From the NCBI GenBank assembly GCA_036517295.1, contig DATDWZ010000014.1, forward strand, positions 1 through 52,235: a stretch of 52,235 nt of DNA, written 5' to 3'. A model generated the notes under the pieces. The model was given only the letters and a program-made list of their open reading frames with translations, did not search any database and had not been told where the DNA came from. The stretch comes from Minisyncoccota bacterium. Its GTDB lineage: Bacteria; Patescibacteriota; Minisyncoccia; Phycocordibacterales; DATDWN01. The position numbers were made by a program, and so were the translations under genes. Of the stretch, positions 9,220-35,094 are shown in pieces. Each line of letters begins with the position of its first letter. Within the stretch, counting starts at the first letter, position 1.

Positions 9220-9558
9220 TTATCTGTTGTACTTGTCTTCTATTCGAACTATATCATCCTCATCAAACTCCCCTTTTGATATTTCCAGAACAACCACATC
9301 ATCCACCGGCGCCGAGATTCTGTGGTTTGTATGTGGAGCTATGATAAATTCCTCTCCCTCTTTCGGATTATGTATTTTATCGCCAATGATAATTTCCGGG
9401 CTACCTTTTATGATTTTCCAGAACTCTTCCCTGTGTGTGTGGTATTGTAAACTGAATTTTTCTCCCCTATTTACATATAAAAGTTTGACCGTTGATAGCT
9501 CATTATTTGTGAAACGGGTAAACGACCCCCATGGCCTTTTGGTGGTAACGGGATTCAT
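9220..9558 (-). CDS. Cupin, type II mannose-6-phosphate isomerase-like
   Basis: KRPWGSF ... VKLLYVNRGEKFSLQYHTHREEFW matches the PMI cupin core. Confidence 0.75.
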   Translation of the reverse strand: MNPVTTKRPWGSFTRFTNNELSTVKLLYVNRGEKFSLQYHTHREEFWKIIKGSPEIIIGDKIHNPKEGEEFIIAPHTNHRISAPVDDVVVLEISKGEFDEDDIVRIEDKYNR

Positions 9559-10363: not shown

Positions 10364-10801
10364 TTATTTGCTTTCCAGTCTTTCCAATATCTCGTTTTGA
10401 TTTTCCAAGTGGGTCAGGATCGTTTCTATTTCCTTCTCAGCCTTTGTATTGACCTCAAAATCGGCTTCCGCTCGAGCCTGAGCGTGCTTACCTTGTAAGT
10501 TCTGACCTATCAAAAGAAGTGGCATAAGAAATATCTGAATCGTGTTGGATATAAAGAGCCATAAGACAAAAGCTGGGTATGGGTCAAAGTGAAATTCTGA
10601 CGGGCCCAACGTGTTCCACCCTATCCATGTAATTGTCCAAAAGAGAATTATAAAGAAAAAGCCCATAGTACCAACCTTTTCGGTTATCCACACAGCAAAC
10701 AACTCAAGGGACGATAGGTGTTCCTTATGTTCGACGTTCACGTTACGTAAAGGTTTACGTGAACTTTTTATTTCATCCAGAGATAATAAGGTCTTTTTCA
10801 T
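10364..10801 (-). CDS. DUF1003-family membrane protein
   Basis: Two TM segments plus a DPYPF-like motif (FDPYPAFVLWLFISN) and a coiled-coil tail. I take ATG 10801 as the start because the upstream 13 codons lie in the repeat element. Confidence 0.7.
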   Translation of the reverse strand: MKKTLLSLDEIKSSRKPLRNVNVEHKEHLSSLELFAVWITEKVGTMGFFFIILFWTITWIGWNTLGPSEFHFDPYPAFVLWLFISNTIQIFLMPLLLIGQNLQGKHAQARAEADFEVNTKAEKEIETILTHLENQNEILERLESK

Positions 10802-10930
10802 CCCGTTAAAGATAGGAAATCCCTCGAGAATACGAGGCATTTCCGTAGTTAATGTTTATATAATAATTAATGTAAACTGAATCTTTATACTACCCAAGAG
10901 AGATTAATCAACCAAGTAATCTCTAACGGG
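10802..10930 (-). mobile_element. Start-codon-abutting TIR element (MITE-like), copy A
   Basis: The termini cccgttaaagat / atctctaacggg are inverted repeats. Flanking direct repeat is ttcat / ttcat. It shares an internal hairpin with copy B. Confidence 0.7.
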
Positions 10931-10959
10931 ATTCATATCCCATTATAACAAATTAAGTT

Positions 10960-25795: not shown

Positions 25796-26845
25796 TTACT
25801 GTTTATTTTTTATATGATATTCCAGTTTTCTACTGCGACAGTGAGATACCATACCAAGATATGAAATTAGAATACCTTGAAATTTGGTTGGGGAGATAAT
25901 TCCCGATTTGAGTTTTTTGCTGATCAGACTTATATTTTTAAGAACTCGCTTTTTTGTATGAGTCCTCAGCACAATCATATGAGGTAGCATGACATATCCT
26001 AGAAAATCGATTCCTTTCTTGACTGAGCGGACTTCTACTTTGTTAGGATGAAGTTCTAATCTAAGATTTTCATAAAGGAACTCCCTTATCCTTTCAATCA
26101 ATCCGGAAAGAGATTCTGAATCCTCGGAAACAATGATGAAATCGTCACAATACCTGAAATAGTATTTTATTTTCAACGTATGTTTTACAAATTGGTCCAA
26201 CTCGTTGAGGTAAATGTTGGCAAAGAGTTGACTTGTCACGTTGCCGAGAGGCAAACCTTTGCCTTTTTCCTTTTCAAAACTTCGGAAAAGTAGGTCTATA
26301 AGTTGCATCGTTTCATGACATGATACTTTTTTCTCTATGAGACTTCGCAATATAAAATGGTCTATTGAATCAAAAAACTTTCTAACATCACATTTCAAGA
26401 CATGTATTTTTCTTTTCCAATTCCTGCTTACTTTTCTACAGGCCACAAAAGACCGTTCCACACCGAGATGTGTTCCGTGTAAATCTCGCGACGAATACGA
26501 GTCATGTATAAAATGTTTATCAAAAATCGGATAAAGTAGGCGATATATCGCCTGATGTACAATACGGTCATAAACGCTTGCTTTGTGTATATGTCTGCGT
26601 TTTGGATCATAAACATAAAAAGCGGAGTATGGCCTATGATGATAATGTCTCGAGGTCAAATCTTCATACAATTGAAAAATATTATCCTCAAGATTCAGTT
26701 CAAATCTAGCCACATCTGCCTTTTTTCTTTTACCCTTCTTAAATTCTTTCCACGCTCCAAATAAATTTGATAGACTTATAATATTATGAAACAAATTCCC
26801 TTGAACGGTGCCCCCCCCCCGCAGCGATGTTGATATTTCCATCAT
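25796..26845 (-). CDS. Diversity-generating retroelement reverse transcriptase
   Basis: RT domains with the DGR-type motif LPLGNVTSQLFANIYL ([ILV]GxxxSQ) and the catalytic YCDD. It sits beside the Avd, TR and VR. Confidence 0.92.
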   Translation of the reverse strand: MMEISTSLRGGGTVQGNLFHNIISLSNLFGAWKEFKKGKRKKADVARFELNLEDNIFQLYEDLTSRHYHHRPYSAFYVYDPKRRHIHKASVYDRIVHQAIYRLLYPIFDKHFIHDSYSSRDLHGTHLGVERSFVACRKVSRNWKRKIHVLKCDVRKFFDSIDHFILRSLIEKKVSCHETMQLIDLLFRSFEKEKGKGLPLGNVTSQLFANIYLNELDQFVKHTLKIKYYFRYCDDFIIVSEDSESLSGLIERIREFLYENLRLELHPNKVEVRSVKKGIDFLGYVMLPHMIVLRTHTKKRVLKNISLISKKLKSGIISPTKFQGILISYLGMVSHCRSRKLEYHIKNKQ

Positions 26846-28502: not shown

Positions 28503-29381
28503 CTAAAGCTTTTGCTCGGCTGAAATAAACTCTTCCAGTTCACCGTTTAATACAGCGTCTATGTTAGAGGTCTCTACGTTCGTTCTGTGGTCCTTGACCA
28601 TCTTGTACGGATGCATAACATAAGAGCGGATTTGGTTCCCCCATTCGATCTGGGTGGTTTTGGATATATACATCCCCTTTTCTTTAGAAATTCGTGCTTC
28701 TTCCATAGCCTTGTAAAGTTTTCCGTGCAAAATCTGCATGGCTTTTTCTTTATTTTGGCCTTGAGACCGTTCGTTGTCACTCTGCGCCGAAAGATTTGTT
28801 GGGATATGGACAACACGAACAGCGGTTTCTCTCTTGTTTACGTTTTGACCACCAGGACCTGAGGAGCGAGAGAGTTCGACACGGATCTCACTCTCTGGAA
28901 TCTCAAAGTCTTTTACTTTTTCGAATTTCGGAATAACCTCAACCATTGAAAATGATGTATGGCGCAGAGATTTGGCATTGAAAGGCGAGATGCGAACGAG
29001 ACGGTGTACGCCAGACTCGTTTTTCAGAGTTCCGTACGCGTTCTTTCCGGATATCTCGATAGTTATATTTCTGTAACCACCGTGATCATTTTCGTTCTGA
29101 TGTAGAACTGTCACACCAAAACCGGTCTTGGAACAAAATTTTAGATACATATTGAGAAGAATAGCAGAAAAATCTTCGGAGTCGTCACCCCCTGCTCCGG
29201 AAAATATGGTCATGACAACATCTCCTGGGTCGTATCTGCCAACTCCGACGATTTCAGCCTTTAACTCTTGTATTCGGCGCAAAGTGGCTTGAGCCTTGTC
29301 TTTGTTAGACCAAAAAGTCGTCAATTGCATCTCGGCTTCAAGCATTTCAAGTTCTTTTTGTAACTTTTCTTTATTATCCAT
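28503..29381 (-). CDS. prfB: Peptide chain release factor 2 (short, single-frame form)
   Basis: SPF tripeptide (ISPFNAK) and GGQ (SGPGGQNVNK). The ORF is uninterrupted and I saw no frameshift site. Confidence 0.9.
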   Translation of the reverse strand: MDNKEKLQKELEMLEAEMQLTTFWSNKDKAQATLRRIQELKAEIVGVGRYDPGDVVMTIFSGAGGDDSEDFSAILLNMYLKFCSKTGFGVTVLHQNENDHGGYRNITIEISGKNAYGTLKNESGVHRLVRISPFNAKSLRHTSFSMVEVIPKFEKVKDFEIPESEIRVELSRSSGPGGQNVNKRETAVRVVHIPTNLSAQSDNERSQGQNKEKAMQILHGKLYKAMEEARISKEKGMYISKTTQIEWGNQIRSYVMHPYKMVKDHRTNVETSNIDAVLNGELEEFISAEQKL

Positions 29382-29507
29382 CCCGTTAGAGATAGGAAAT
29401 CCCTCTACTGAGGCATTTCCGTACCAGCCTATCTGTTTGTAAGGATATTTCGACCATAATCATTGTGGACATATCGTAAGTGAATCAACTGAATGATCTC
29501 TAACGGG
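29382..29507 (-). mobile_element. Start-codon-abutting TIR element (MITE-like), copy B
   Basis: Perfect 12-bp TIR cccgttagagat / atctctaacggg, flanked by the perfect 6-bp direct repeat atccat (29376-29381 and 29508-29513). Confidence 0.75.
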
Positions 29508-29514
29508 ATCCATG

Positions 29515-29585
29515 AGCCAAAAGCGGGAATCGGACCCACGTTCCTACTTTACGAAAGTAGTGTTCTGCCACTGAACTATTTTGGC
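29515..29585 (-). tRNA. tRNA-Thr(CGU), no encoded CCA
   Basis: Acceptor GCCAAAA/TTTTGGC, anticodon stem CTACT/AGTAG, loop TTCGTAA. Confidence 0.85.
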
Positions 29586-29989: not shown

Positions 29990-30583
29990 TTACATATCTT
30001 CTATGTTAGCAATTTGTGAACAAATCAAATTTCTCAGTTTCACGTTATTAAAATGGACCAGAACCACGCCATAATTCATCTTATTAGCATATGTTCCATC
30101 TCCCCTTCTCTTAAGTATTGTCGTCTTAGAGAATTGAGCACTTTTTACCGATAAATACTTGGTCCAGAATAAAATAAGTTCATCGACATCAAGATCGTCG
30201 TATGTTTGCAACTGAAATTTTAATTTCCTTTTATCTATTTTGTAAATCTTGGTAAGAAAATATAGAAATCTTTTAATTAAAGCAGGGTCACTGTTACATA
30301 ATCTAACTGCATGGAGATTTCTCTTTGTACCTTCACCCCAAAACAAACCTAACCCTAAGCCGAAAAGAAACATATCACCAAGTTTTTTCGGGGTATTAAA
30401 GGAAAAGGGGTCACCTTTTGGATTGTTCCTTTGATACGTGGCCTCGGATATTGTTCTTTTTTTAATATCAAACTTTTCTAGCCAGTAATTCACTTTATGT
30501 TCTGAACATTTATATATTCGACCAATCTGTTTTGAAGACAACTTCTTACTTAGATATAATTTTTCTAGTTTTGTTTTTTCCAT
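29990..30583 (-). CDS. HTH plus single-motif LAGLIDADG-like endonuclease homolog
   Basis: N-terminal HTH (LSSKQIGRIYKCSEHKVNYWL) and a LFGLGLGLFWGEGTK LAGLIDADG-like motif. The ORF ends 29 nt before tRNA-Thr(GGU). Confidence 0.55.
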   Translation of the reverse strand: MEKTKLEKLYLSKKLSSKQIGRIYKCSEHKVNYWLEKFDIKKRTISEATYQRNNPKGDPFSFNTPKKLGDMFLFGLGLGLFWGEGTKRNLHAVRLCNSDPALIKRFLYFLTKIYKIDKRKLKFQLQTYDDLDVDELILFWTKYLSVKSAQFSKTTILKRRGDGTYANKMNYGVVLVHFNNVKLRNLICSQIANIEDM

Positions 30584-33822: not shown

Positions 33823-34110
33823 CGACCGGACTTGAACCGGCAACCTCTCCCGTGCACTTATTCATTATTTTCATAATGGCGTGGACTATATCTTCACCAT
33901 AGGATTACCCTTAGGTGCTTCGGTATCTAGTCTCTACGGCGCCCCAGCTCTAATTGTGTAATTAGGGCTGGGTTCCCTCGGTATTCGCATATCCTTCGTA
34001 TGAACTCAGGACTTAGCCTTCACCGATATCCCAAAGAGTTTCAATCTGCCGTTTCGACAGAAAGCTGCATATCTACAGGGGAGTGCTCTAACCAGTTGAG
34101 CTACGACCGC
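33817..34110 (-). tRNA. tRNA-Asp(GUC) interrupted by a group I intron
   Basis: The exons 34110-34075 and 33854-33817 join to a 74-nt cloverleaf with anticodon loop CTGTCAC, discriminator G and a short variable loop. Confidence 0.75.
33855..34074 (-). ncRNA. Group I intron (IC3-like, ORF-less), inserted between anticodon positions 35 and 36
   Basis: The core string GTAGAGACTAGA...CACCTAAGG...CTATGG closely matches the tRNA group I intron core as I remember it from Azoarcus and Anabaena. P1 is exon CTGT paired to GCAG with a U.G at the splice site. The intron ends in G. Confidence 0.72.
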
Positions 34111-34772
34111 ATTTCCTTATATCTCTCAAATACATCTTTCTTCCTTTTTAGGAATAACTTTGATGTACCTAGAGTATTATACATAAAATCGTATAATCTC
34201 AAAGAGTTATTGACACTGTACTGCAGACGGGAATAATTTCTTTTCGACTTATATATGCAGCCGCCCAACATGCCGAAACCAGCAAGTTCTATCTGCAATG
34301 TTCTCAAGAATTTATCAGAACCTGATGTAAACATGGTCATAATAGAAAAAATACTGTGTTTCCTGTCTTTTTTCATATCTCCAATCCACACATTCCCATC
34401 ACCATCAAAATAACCTCTGACAAAATTAGAAAAGTATTTTGTAGGAACATGAGAAATGGCCAGACTTTTTGTCTTTCTTTCATTAAAACCCAGCCTGCGC
34501 AGATCGTTACACATTTCAATACTACCTATCTGCATTCTCCACTGGTCCTTGTTTTTCCCCCTCCCTTTTCTAAAACTAATTTTATGTTCAGATTCTATAG
34601 TCTTTTTTATTTCTTCTACTAATCCCTCGTCAGTTATACTAATACACCAAAACTGCCCGCCACGCCTATTTACTGTGATATAACCATCCGCAGCGAAAAA
34701 TCCTAGTACGTAAGCCATATTAGATGACCATTTTTTGAAAAAACCTTTATTTACTGATTTAAATACTGGCAC
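34101..34772 (-). CDS. Double-motif LAGLIDADG homing endonuclease, free-standing
   Basis: Motifs LGFFAADGYI and VRGYFDGDGNV. The stop codon lies inside the first 10 nt of tRNA-Asp. Confidence 0.8.
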   Translation of the reverse strand: MPVFKSVNKGFFKKWSSNMAYVLGFFAADGYITVNRRGGQFWCISITDEGLVEEIKKTIESEHKISFRKGRGKNKDQWRMQIGSIEMCNDLRRLGFNERKTKSLAISHVPTKYFSNFVRGYFDGDGNVWIGDMKKDRKHSIFSIMTMFTSGSDKFLRTLQIELAGFGMLGGCIYKSKRNYSRLQYSVNNSLRLYDFMYNTLGTSKLFLKRKKDVFERYKEMRS

Positions 34773-34830
34773 CTATATATTATATAACGTGACAGGACAT
34801 TTATCTAGCCAGTTATTAACATTCCAATTG

Positions 34831-34901
34831 TGTCGATGGATGGAATCGAACCATCGTCTAAGGCTTATGAGTCCTCCGTTCTACCATTGAACTACACCGA
34901 C
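34831..34901 (-). tRNA. tRNA with CAU anticodon (Met or Ile2)
   Basis: Acceptor GTCGGTG/CATCGAC, loop CTCATAA, T-arm GATGG-TTCGATT-CCATC. Confidence 0.8.
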
Positions 34902-35018: not shown

Positions 35019-35023
35019 ACATG

Positions 35024-35094
35024 TTGCGGAGCCACGATTTGCACGTGGGTCTGCAGGTTATGAGCCTACCGAGATACTACTTCTCTACTCCGCT
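35024..35094 (-). tRNA. tRNA with CAU anticodon and a mismatched 1:72 pair (possible initiator)
   Basis: The fold with T8/A9 in register gives A1 opposite A72. Anticodon stem GTAGG/CCTGC, loop CTCATAA. Confidence 0.7.

Follow-up and report, generated by a model that had tools for sequence, protein, structure and literature searches.

A probable family of miniature mobile elements at start codons in Patescibacteria and several other phyla

The subject of this report is a short inverted-repeat element in a 52,235-nucleotide stretch of DNA from a Minisyncoccota bacterium (Patescibacteria; positions 1 to 52,235 of contig DATDWZ010000014.1, assembly GCA_036517295.1), which we call “the window.” The element lies between the gene for tRNA-Thr(CGU) and prfB, the gene for release factor RF2, and one of its ends touches the prfB start codon. 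We conclude that it probably belongs to a family of non-autonomous mobile DNA elements that had not been described before, of the kind called MITEs (miniature transposable elements with inverted repeats). Copies of the family have terminal inverted repeats and a flanking duplication of fixed length and variable sequence, they are small, non-coding, and present many times, and empty sites exist. The hallmark of MITEs that was not found, among the approximately 240 loci examined, is a related autonomous element that has the same ends and encodes a transposase.

The element is not specific to this genome, but represents a family found across several phyla. A scan of one genome per species with the pattern CCCGTTARAG-N85-115-CTYTAACGGG recovered at least 117 loci, and the matches listed yielded a first set of 128 copies, which were oriented by their internal asymmetry. 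A second scan made use of the longer arm of a variant form, called “type 2” below, and recovered at least 120 loci, of which those listed are mostly new and are all from Patescibacteria. From these, an independent test set of 96 copies was drawn, such that more than 220 copies of the family have been sampled in total. The loci from the first scan are mostly in Patescibacteria, where they occur in many classes, and at least 13 of the matches listed are in Omnitrophota. Further hosts are Planctomycetota, Elusimicrobiota, WOR-3, Thermodesulfovibrionia, and Desulfobacterota-type metagenome-assembled genomes (MAGs). Single genomes can carry at least seven copies (second scan), and two copies in L059 are identical across their printed end sequences. 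Where the window organism is present in groundwater and soil metagenomes, contigs reach a depth of approximately 600 to 690 at the two termini versus approximately 10 for prfB (about 60-fold), and the termini there are surrounded by many differing interiors and flanks. We also considered viral contigs as carriers, but the three matches on such contigs lack the family features and look like chance. The presence of the family in Patescibacteria, Omnitrophota, Planctomycetota, and Elusimicrobiota points to horizontal exchange in groundwater communities, and also to an enzyme that acts in trans.

No copy matches an Rfam 15 family at the gathering threshold, and at E-values of up to 10 only chance-level matches that overlap the tRNA were obtained. 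Likewise, a full-text literature search that used the terminal 10-mers and also covered MITEs of Patescibacteria or of the candidate phyla radiation returned only chance primer matches and unrelated papers. Thus, no description of the family was found in Rfam or in the searchable literature, and we treat it as previously undescribed.

Copies are 105 to 135 bp long and have ends of the form Y-CCCGTTAGAG(RY)... and ...(RY)CTCTAACGGG-R. A 10-bp arm core is common to more than 220 copies, and in the prfB copy (copy 2 of the three in the window) the repeats are perfect over 12 to 13 bp. A preliminary description of this locus had noted a 126-nt stretch bounded by a perfect 12-bp inverted repeat between tRNA-Thr(CGU) and the prfB ATG, and these features are indeed seen in the sequence (cccgttagagat at 29382-29393 and atctctaacggg at 29496-29507). 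However, the family as a whole places the boundaries of the element slightly farther out. Throughout the 128 copies, CCCG is preceded by a pyrimidine and CGGG is followed by a purine, and these two bases are complementary in 127 (TA in 75, CG in 48, and TG in 3). Directly outside this pair, a perfect 4-bp repeat is present in 84 of the 128 copies, compared with a mean of 17 and a maximum of 29 when flanks were re-paired at random in 2000 trials. The independent set gave a perfect 4-bp duplication in 59 of 96 copies. When the flanks are compared position by position, positions 2 to 5 are repeated in 77 to 80% of copies, position 1 in 64%, and position 6 in only 34%. Moreover, the base before the left repeat is not G in 17 of the 32 C:G-type copies that have a perfect duplication. 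The terminal base pair therefore belongs to the element, and what is truly duplicated at the target is 4 bp, with 3 or 5 bp seen only rarely. The consensus of the duplication is T-N-N-A, and its commonest forms are TGAA (32 copies), TAAA (12), TGGA (11), TGAG (7), and TTTA (5). About one-quarter of the copies have non-matching flanks that resemble halves of different duplications, which we read as the result of recombination between copies.

Two earlier statements about the prfB locus must be amended in this light. The 6-bp repeat atccat does stand on both flanks (29376-29381 and 29508-29513), but it is not a 6-bp target duplication, as it is composed of the 4-bp duplication, the T/A pair of the element, and one coincident flanking base per side. 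Similarly, the start codon is present twice, but the proximal ATG is not a plain duplicate, given that its A is the last base of the element. More generally, because the terminal pair is carried by the element and the duplication is 4 bp, the start codon of an abutted gene is a chimera made of the last base of the element and the TG of the duplicated target. Insertion into R|TGNA leaves an intact RTG and an untouched frame on the side of the hairpin that we call P2 (see below), because the element ends in ...GGG-A or ...GGG-G. For the same reason, an old ATG upstream can be accompanied by a new GTG downstream, and the reverse. Such mixed starts are ATGAA-C...G-TGAAA (L019 and L078), ATGGA-C...G-TGGAC (L018), and GTGAA-T...A-TGAAT (L048).

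Chimeric start codons of this kind are common. Of the 128 copies in the first set, 69 stand against an open reading frame (ORF) of 60 or more codons that opens with an ATG or GTG right after ...CGGG, whereas control offsets gave 0 to 4 of approximately 122. In the independent type-2 set, 79 of 96 copies abut the start of an ORF. The downstream genes, as identified by eye, are diverse and in many cases essential, and they include those for TopA, GyrA, DnaG, PriA, SMC, RuvC, RecR, RF1, RF2, RRF, BipA, and PheT, and for the ribosomal proteins L9 (twice), L17, L35, and S20. The N-termini encoded downstream match, again by eye, the canonical starts of TopA, L9, RuvC, BipA, SMC, S20, DnaG, and PheT. 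Because of this coincidence, the chimeric start codons must be real and the genes must be expressed.

The placement at an ATG that had been described for the window copies holds for all three of them, but it is not universal in the family. In Omnitrophota and other lineages that use Shine–Dalgarno (SD) sequences, the duplication is typically GTAAA, and the element is located just 5′ of an AAGGAG-like SD or 5 to 15 nt before the ATG. A separate arrangement is seen in a Syntrophaceae MAG (L069, 1880-2015), where the element separates the xseB ATG from its SD, a GGGGAG that overlaps the end of xseA. The terminal stem would be needed there to rejoin SD and ATG. In RNA contigs from peat metatranscriptomes, the xseA transcript at this locus continues into the element at low depth, with no spliced joints.

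The preliminary description had named one finding that would speak against insertion, namely that orthologous loci carry the sequence as an ancestral leader. What the orthologues show is the opposite. Among 80 RF2 loci from other Patescibacteria genomes (59 to 83% identity), none has the element upstream of the gene, and this result supports the description of copy 2 as a MITE-like insertion at the prfB start. Empty sites are seen in seven of them (L123, L135, L141, L154, L161, L185, and L202), in which the tRNA end ...GGCTC is followed directly by ATGGAC, ATGGAT, or ATGAAA. The layout predicted for the window copy is GGCTC-A-TGGA-(element)-TGGA-TAATAAA, whereas relatives show GGCTC-ATGGAY. 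Because of these empty sites, we take the ancestral state to be a prfB start codon located 1 nt after tRNA-Thr. Copy 2 is an insertion rather than an ancestral leader. A structured leader of prfB and other genes that was inherited vertically could be proposed on the grounds that the element is present in every strain-level contig of this population. Indeed, the three window copies are fixed, as all contigs (from several samples) that encode the neighboring proteins carry them, and no presence/absence polymorphism at strain level was found among the contigs with the three neighboring proteins. However, the complete absence of the element from the other RF2 loci, the exact empty sites, the variation of the flanking duplications, and the occurrence of the element at unrelated genes in different genomes leave this proposal with a negligible probability.

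Two features of the RF2 gene itself were observed in passing. The start codon of RF2 is 1 nt past the 3′ end of tRNA-Thr in many Patescibacteria (window 28503-29585, and the same seven loci listed above), and the 5′ end of the prfB mRNA may therefore arise by tRNA processing. Also, the window RF2 (only 292 aa) begins where Escherichia coli RF2 resumes past its frameshift site, and thus it should be made without a programmed frameshift.

The two arms of the element can form a terminal stem, P1, and a second, local hairpin, P2, is found beside one of the arms. P2 has at least 5 bp (mostly 7 bp) in 102 of the 128 copies, and between it and the gene-proximal arm there are one T and the arm's RY. 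In most copies P2 is a stem of 7 to 9 bp next to one arm, and it is usually preceded by AC. The middle of the element is variable and A/T-rich. Covariation was assessed in 51 copies whose ends had been concatenated and aligned without gaps; pairing in P2 was a selection criterion for these copies, but the diversity of pair types was not. In this alignment, covariation is seen at the terminal pair (UA in 34, CG in 17, none unpaired) and at P1 positions 11 and 12, and all seven basal pairs of P2 show double changes. The three window copies, when folded as single strands, each form a terminal stem of approximately 14 bp that takes in the A and U of the start codon, with energies of -42 to -46 kcal/mol. 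Their z-scores run from -2.7 to -3.75, meaning that they are more stable than shuffled sequences. For copy 2 the values are -42.4 kcal/mol and z = -2.7.

Several structural variants belong to the family. In type 2 copies, which include copy 3 of the window, the partner of the P2 3′ strand is located directly after the distal arm, which produces an inverted repeat of approximately 22 to 25 bp with A/T-rich cargo in the loop. A variant of the 3′ arm with a 1-nt A bulge, CTCTAAACGGG, accounts for arms that appear to have no partner. Mini-versions of 27 to 31 nt are reduced to the two arms joined by a short loop (L010 5741-5767 and L027 3405-3435). An internal third arm was considered as a general device against sequestration of the start codon, but this was rejected given that it is restricted to subfamilies (18 of 128 copies). 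Finally, two or more elements, sometimes of different subfamilies, can form direct tandem arrays in which all copies are co-oriented and exactly one 6-nt junction separates neighbors (Table 1). A single junction hexamer between tandem copies is as expected if each insertion recreates its target.

Some of these features are reminiscent of integron-type attC sites, or of remnants of gene-cassette boundaries. The size is similar (about 60 to 140 nt for attC), the ends are conserved (GTTAGAG and CTCTAAC resemble the GTTRRRY and RYYYAAC cores) while the center is variable and covarying, and ORFs begin right after the element. However, the core polarity is reversed, as it is the 5′ arm that carries GTT and the 3′ arm that carries AAC (5′-GTTAGAG...CTCTAAC-3′), a 4-bp duplication is present, and copies are dispersed at housekeeping genes rather than collected in cassette arrays. 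Furthermore, no integrase was seen when the ORFs around the first 117 loci were clustered. We therefore regard an attC origin as exceedingly improbable.

Copies of the family are not only positioned but also oriented with respect to genes. When judged by the motif next to the arm, 45 of 48 copies have their P2 side toward the gene, and when judged by P2 folding energy, 57 of 64 do. In a re-analysis, orientation follows the gene in 60 of 65 copies. Replication direction was considered as the cause and rejected, since this number includes all 15 copies whose gene runs against the local majority. The type-2 set is even more uniform (78 versus 1). The preliminary description had asked whether copies elsewhere are placed and oriented at random relative to genes, and clearly they are not. 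Because both ends are identical and regeneration of the start works either way round, the polarity must stem from something else, and it argues for some polarity-dependent effect on expression. In copies that are not at starts, orientation does not depend on which strand the duplicated tetranucleotide is read from, as TAAA and TTTA are both seen. The sense strand is rich in A, and flipping the element would approximately double the number of TTG triplets near the start.

The expression of genes behind the element has to be considered in light of how the host initiates translation. Only 6 of 61 crude gene starts in the window have an SD-like motif, and many starts have a TAnnnT box 5 to 9 nt upstream, which is a signature of leaderless transcripts. 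These sequence features suggest that leaderless or SD-independent initiation is widespread in the host. Remains of such an arrangement are found at the old starts, with TGTTATAAT-gggat-ATG at copy 1 and TATAAT, 8 nt, and then ACG at copy 3, while copy 2 has the tRNA instead. Once the element is in place, transcription presumably begins at the old start codon or close to it, such that the mRNA has the entire element as its leader. As had been described for copy 2, the distal ATG (29513-29511) is 1 nt past tRNA-Thr and opens a frame that stops inside the element, and the proximal ATG is predicted to be at the base of the 14-bp stem, with no SD-like motif in front of it. In the family, the old start opens an upstream ORF of 6 to 42 codons, and 12 of 48 such ORFs stop no more than 4 nt from the main AUG (at the TAA of CTC-TAA-CGGG, or at an AUGA overlap). 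However, coupling to this ORF is not a general requirement, because 15 of 63 copies (about 24%) no longer have the old start.

The duplication of the start codon and second codon around a compact hairpin could also be viewed as a translational bypass, or “hop,” of the type known from T4 gene 60 or the byp elements of yeast mitochondria, in which ribosomes would start at the old ATG and land past the hairpin. The sixth flank position corresponds to the third base of the second codon, and its low agreement, noted above, means that take-off and landing codons usually differ. In addition, there is no stop codon after the take-off codon, the gap is 2 to 3 times longer than in known bypasses, and the loss of the old start has occurred at genes that need to be expressed. 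Given these discrepancies, bypass is a very improbable explanation.

The preliminary description had offered two readings of the placement at starts, target specificity for the start-codon context or recruitment as a leader or translational switch. In line with the second, a more serious alternative is that the element has been domesticated as a portable 5′ leader or translational switch, and is kept because it is useful. A mobile origin would not conflict with this. The AUG-burying P1 stem might alternate with other folds, or might be cut (for example by RNase III) to give a near-leaderless mRNA, and the element could in this way regulate or enable translation in organisms without SD sequences. 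The locked orientation, the presence of a conserved covarying hairpin 13 nt before the AUG, and the association with essential genes that need expression would all be accounted for, as would the location of the element directly 5′ of the SD/ATG region in SD-using phyla. Likewise, pairing of the 5′ arm is slightly higher with its own cargo than with shuffled cargo (0.54 versus 0.475, p = 6e-4), some subfamilies have the internal third arm, and a portion of the upstream ORFs end next to the main AUG. Against this, the element is sporadic among orthologues, as illustrated by the RF2 loci, coupling to the upstream ORF is not required given that some copies have lost the old start, and no Rfam family matches. 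There is also no bias toward folding of the sense strand in the copies that abut genes: the sense strand folds better than the antisense strand by 1.3 kcal/mol overall (p = 0.003), but the difference disappears in this subset. Taken together, we consider a domesticated leader unlikely, albeit with enough in its favor to be taken seriously.

A bolder version of this idea is that of a mobile “portable translation start,” wherein the transposition machinery, or selection, targets the first nucleotides of genes or transcripts across several phyla and the polar P1/P2 structure is an RNA module. We judge this to be quite unlikely. If true, P1/P2 would either be processed to restore a leaderless 5′ AUG or replace, through its structure, the SD interaction that is missing. 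The initiation of essential genes would then have been rewired in SD-free bacteria, and the element would be more than merely tolerated.

The identity of the mobilizing enzyme was approached by clustering the long ORFs around the first 117 loci. One recurrent family of mobile type emerged, an IS200-like Y1 protein (HUH class, resembling RAYT, the REP-associated tyrosine transposases), whose genes are 150 to 1500 nt from an element in 3 of the 117 loci (L016 232-985, L034 3507-4242, and L074 1748-2486). This raises the possibility that the element is a REPIN-like (repetitive extragenic palindrome-type) or IS200/IS605-derived hairpin element that is moved as single-stranded DNA by a Y1 transposase. 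In that case, the 4-nt “duplication” would be a target tetranucleotide plus an identical cleavage site borne by the element. The hairpins are conserved in structure and variable in sequence, as this idea would have it, no linked transposase or autonomous copy was found, and the Y1_Tnp family is very common in Patescibacteria (more than 573 matches, L216-L295 included, with an N-terminal GEYYHIYNRG motif). However, the suggestive adjacency at three loci was not confirmed when 80 Y1_Tnp loci were inspected, as a canonical element lies within 2.5 kb in only 5 of them and none has elements on both flanks. IS200/IS605 elements have separate subterminal hairpins at their left and right ends and insert 3′ of a fixed tetra- or pentanucleotide, relative to which their orientation is fixed. 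Here both ends are true inverted repeats joined in one stem, P2 stands beside one end only, and the flanking tetranucleotide varies. Moreover, orientation follows the gene and not the strand of the target tetranucleotide, and no guide–target covariation was seen by eye. We therefore hold a single-strand mechanism of this sort to be improbable.

Although a MITE remains our preferred interpretation, a number of results weigh against it. First, an autonomous partner was sought through arm pairs 136 to 5000 nt apart, through solo arms, and through the second scan with the long type-2 arm, and no arm pair more than 260 nt apart that encloses an ORF was found in the approximately 240 loci examined (8-kb windows, matches listed). 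As a consequence, the defining companion of classical MITEs is missing. Second, transposons that are cut by DDE enzymes do not usually have a covarying hairpin, which would better fit enzymes that recognize structures in single-stranded DNA. Third, the bias toward starts is too strong for simple tolerance. The window contains RTRRA sites at 16 gene starts, 128 intergenic positions, and 1111 intragenic positions, and ATGRA sites at 16, 24, and 234, respectively. Thus random insertion followed by the loss of all intragenic copies would place 11 to 40% of survivors at starts, compared with the approximately 85 to 90% observed for RTG-flanked copies. This excess indicates that something adds to simple purifying selection, which could be an extra target preference, harm from intergenic insertion into tightly packed promoters, or a benefit at starts. 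Fourth, the main AUG is predicted to be mostly paired (unpaired probability of 0.29), in either orientation of the element, such that the translation of essential genes behind this predicted stem has no explanation in the model. An outward promoter within the element is not supported, given that there is neither a positional peak of TAnnnT nor a -10-like box at a fixed distance. Finally, an RNA role for the structure is not supported by any strong sense-strand bias.

With these points in mind, we describe the course of insertion as follows. The element inserts with a 4-bp (rarely 3- or 5-bp) T-N-N-A target duplication, most likely through an enzyme that acts in trans and makes 4-bp staggered cuts, which is the simplest reading of the data. 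At a gene start, the old start codon ends up stranded approximately 125 nt upstream. In the case of copy 2, an ancestral order of tRNA-Thr, C, and prfB ATG was split by the insertion. Start-codon sites are probably among the few that tolerate insertion in compact genomes with almost no SD sequences and many leaderless genes, and a sequence preference for RTRRA probably adds to the clustering at starts. Because P2 is on the side of the gene in more than 92% of copies, that side should hold something that permits expression. Candidates are co-transcriptional folding that keeps the AUG free, ribosomes on the short upstream ORF that unmask the AUG, and RNA processing at the long stem.

The window carries two further copies (10802-10930 and 51127-51242 without their terminal pairs), which agree in position and orientation with what had been described, at two unrelated genes. 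All three copies have the same end against the ATG of a minus-strand gene (Table 1). The exact arm 10-mer occurs six times in the window, corresponding to the ends of the three elements, whereas we estimate that approximately 0.2 occurrences are expected from composition, and a looser search of the window found no copy beyond these three. The gene behind copy 3 belongs to a pilus-like operon, and its duplication is a decayed 5-bp version in which the old ATG is now ACG. In public gene calls, the DUF1003 gene behind copy 1 starts at an ATG inside the element (158 aa), while the boundary ATG at 10801 gives a protein of 145 aa (10801-10840).

Table 1. Coordinates of the three window copies, of the features around copy 2, and of tandem arrays at other loci
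Feature	Position	Strand	Remarks
Copy 2, whole element with terminal T/A pair	29381..29508	-	128 nt; gene strand T-CCCGTTAGAGAT...ATCTCTAACGGG-A
Copy 2, gene-proximal 4-bp target duplication	29377..29380	-	TGGA on gene strand; source of TG in prfB start codon
Copy 2, distal 4-bp target duplication	29509..29512	-	TGGA; with A at 29513 forms old ATG
Current prfB start codon	29379..29381	-	A (29381) is last base of element; TG (29380-29379) is duplicated target
Upstream ORF from old ATG	29460..29513	-	17 codons plus stop, MDPVRDHSVDSLTICPQ; crosses 5′ arm, ends within element
P2 hairpin of copy 2	29395..29420	-	GGAAATGCCTC / GAGGGATTTCC on gene strand; one T between P2 and gene-proximal arm
RF2 (prfB) ORF	28503..29381	-	292 aa; PCRF and RF-1 domains, SPF motif
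tRNA-Thr(CGU)	29515..29585	-	directly upstream of old start codon
Copy 1	10801..10931	-	131 nt with terminal pair; at ATG of DUF1003 membrane protein gene (10364-10801)
Copy 1, duplications	10797-10800 and 10932-10935		ttca on + strand
Copy 1, old leaderless-type promoter	10942-10947 (-10 box)		TGTTATAAT, just upstream
Copy 3	51126..51243	-	118 nt; type 2 long-inverted-repeat form; at ATG of 201-aa gene (50521-51126)
Copy 3, duplications	51121-51125 (proximal) and 51244-51248 (distal)		gene strand TGGAG (proximal); decayed, CGGAG (distal)
Copy 3, old -10 box	51258-51263		TATAAT
Tandem arrays	L056 5473-5710; L114 6073-6288 and 7115-7330; L079 529-745; L036 492-750; L071 6682-6998; L015 5899-6278		

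A candidate fourth copy at 9558 was rejected, as it is a genuine gene that merely starts with ATGAATCCCGTT. This cupin-like gene (9547-9558, minus strand) begins with the 12 nt of a typical distal junction, consisting of an old start and the beginning of an arm, with no element after it, and the resemblance may be due to chance or may be a relic. Toward the end of the window (51450-52235), GC content rises to 0.52 to 0.57, and two lone arm-like 10-mers without partners are found there, CCCTAACGGG and CTCTAACGAG (51570-51579 and 51787-51796).

A group I intron match in Rfam (56.5 bits; 33862-34162, minus strand) lies directly downstream of an ORF with LAGLIDADG homing-endonuclease domains (34101-34772, minus strand), and this locus adjoins two tRNA-Met genes (34830-34901 and 35023-35094). 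A reverse transcriptase (RVT_1) is encoded at 25796-26845 (minus strand) and nearby, beside a gene of the bAvd family (also L004 5200-5574), and this gene content suggests that there is a diversity-generating retroelement in the vicinity of prfB. An ORF of 197 aa (29990-30583, minus strand) just upstream of tRNA-Thr(GGU) has no Pfam match; its N-terminus is helix-turn-helix-like, and its GLGLGLFWGEG motif recalls LAGLIDADG enzymes.

If our interpretation is correct, the family has found a new route by which a selfish element can survive in very compact genomes, namely by donating the first base of a start codon that it rebuilds. This donation would allow it to reside at topA, gyrA, dnaG, the RF1 and RF2 genes, and ribosomal protein genes. 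The family also makes initiation in Patescibacteria open to experiment, as it provides dozens of natural cases in which a leaderless gene has acquired a structured leader of 125 nt. A practical consequence is annotation error, in that gene callers appear to mis-start at least one gene (DUF1003) within the element.

Comparisons with known systems reveal resemblances to several of them. The Correia elements of Neisseria are MITEs with a TA duplication that are confined to one genus, are often located 5′ of genes, and are co-transcribed as long hairpins. Like these, the present elements are non-coding, approximately 100 to 150 bp in length, and numerous, with terminal inverted repeats, a short duplication, and no transposase of their own. 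Unlike Correia elements, they duplicate 4 bp (TNNA), span several phyla, have nearly a single orientation relative to genes, sit exactly on start codons to which they donate the first base, and have no known parent insertion sequence. REP/REPIN elements and their RAYT proteins offer another parallel, in that they are short palindromic hairpins of high copy number, mostly without a linked transposase and with structure conserved above sequence, and RAYT-like genes are abundant in the same genomes as the present family. However, REPINs leave no target duplication, are mostly found 3′ of genes, and flank a RAYT gene, whereas the present elements have a 4-bp duplication, reside at the 5′ ends of genes, and do not flank Y1_Tnp genes.

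Among DDE insertion sequences in ISfinder tables, some families have 4- to 5-bp duplications and CC ends (IS1380) and others have 4-bp duplications (IS5, IS701). The duplication of 3 to 5 bp (mostly 4), the (Y)CCC ends, and the symmetric T..A target, as if from a DDE dimer, are in keeping with such enzymes, but no assignment to a family is possible because no transposase gene was found between such ends in the approximately 240 loci. Integron attC sites share the size, the 7-bp-like conserved cores, the variable paired center, and the ORF just downstream, but differ in core polarity, in having no target duplication, and in their arrays and integrase. Finally, the palindromic elements of Rickettsia and the byp elements of yeast mitochondria are also small palindromic mobile insertions that spare the gene product. 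Those elements are translated in frame or bypassed, whereas the present element stays outside the ORF and recreates the start codon at its own end.

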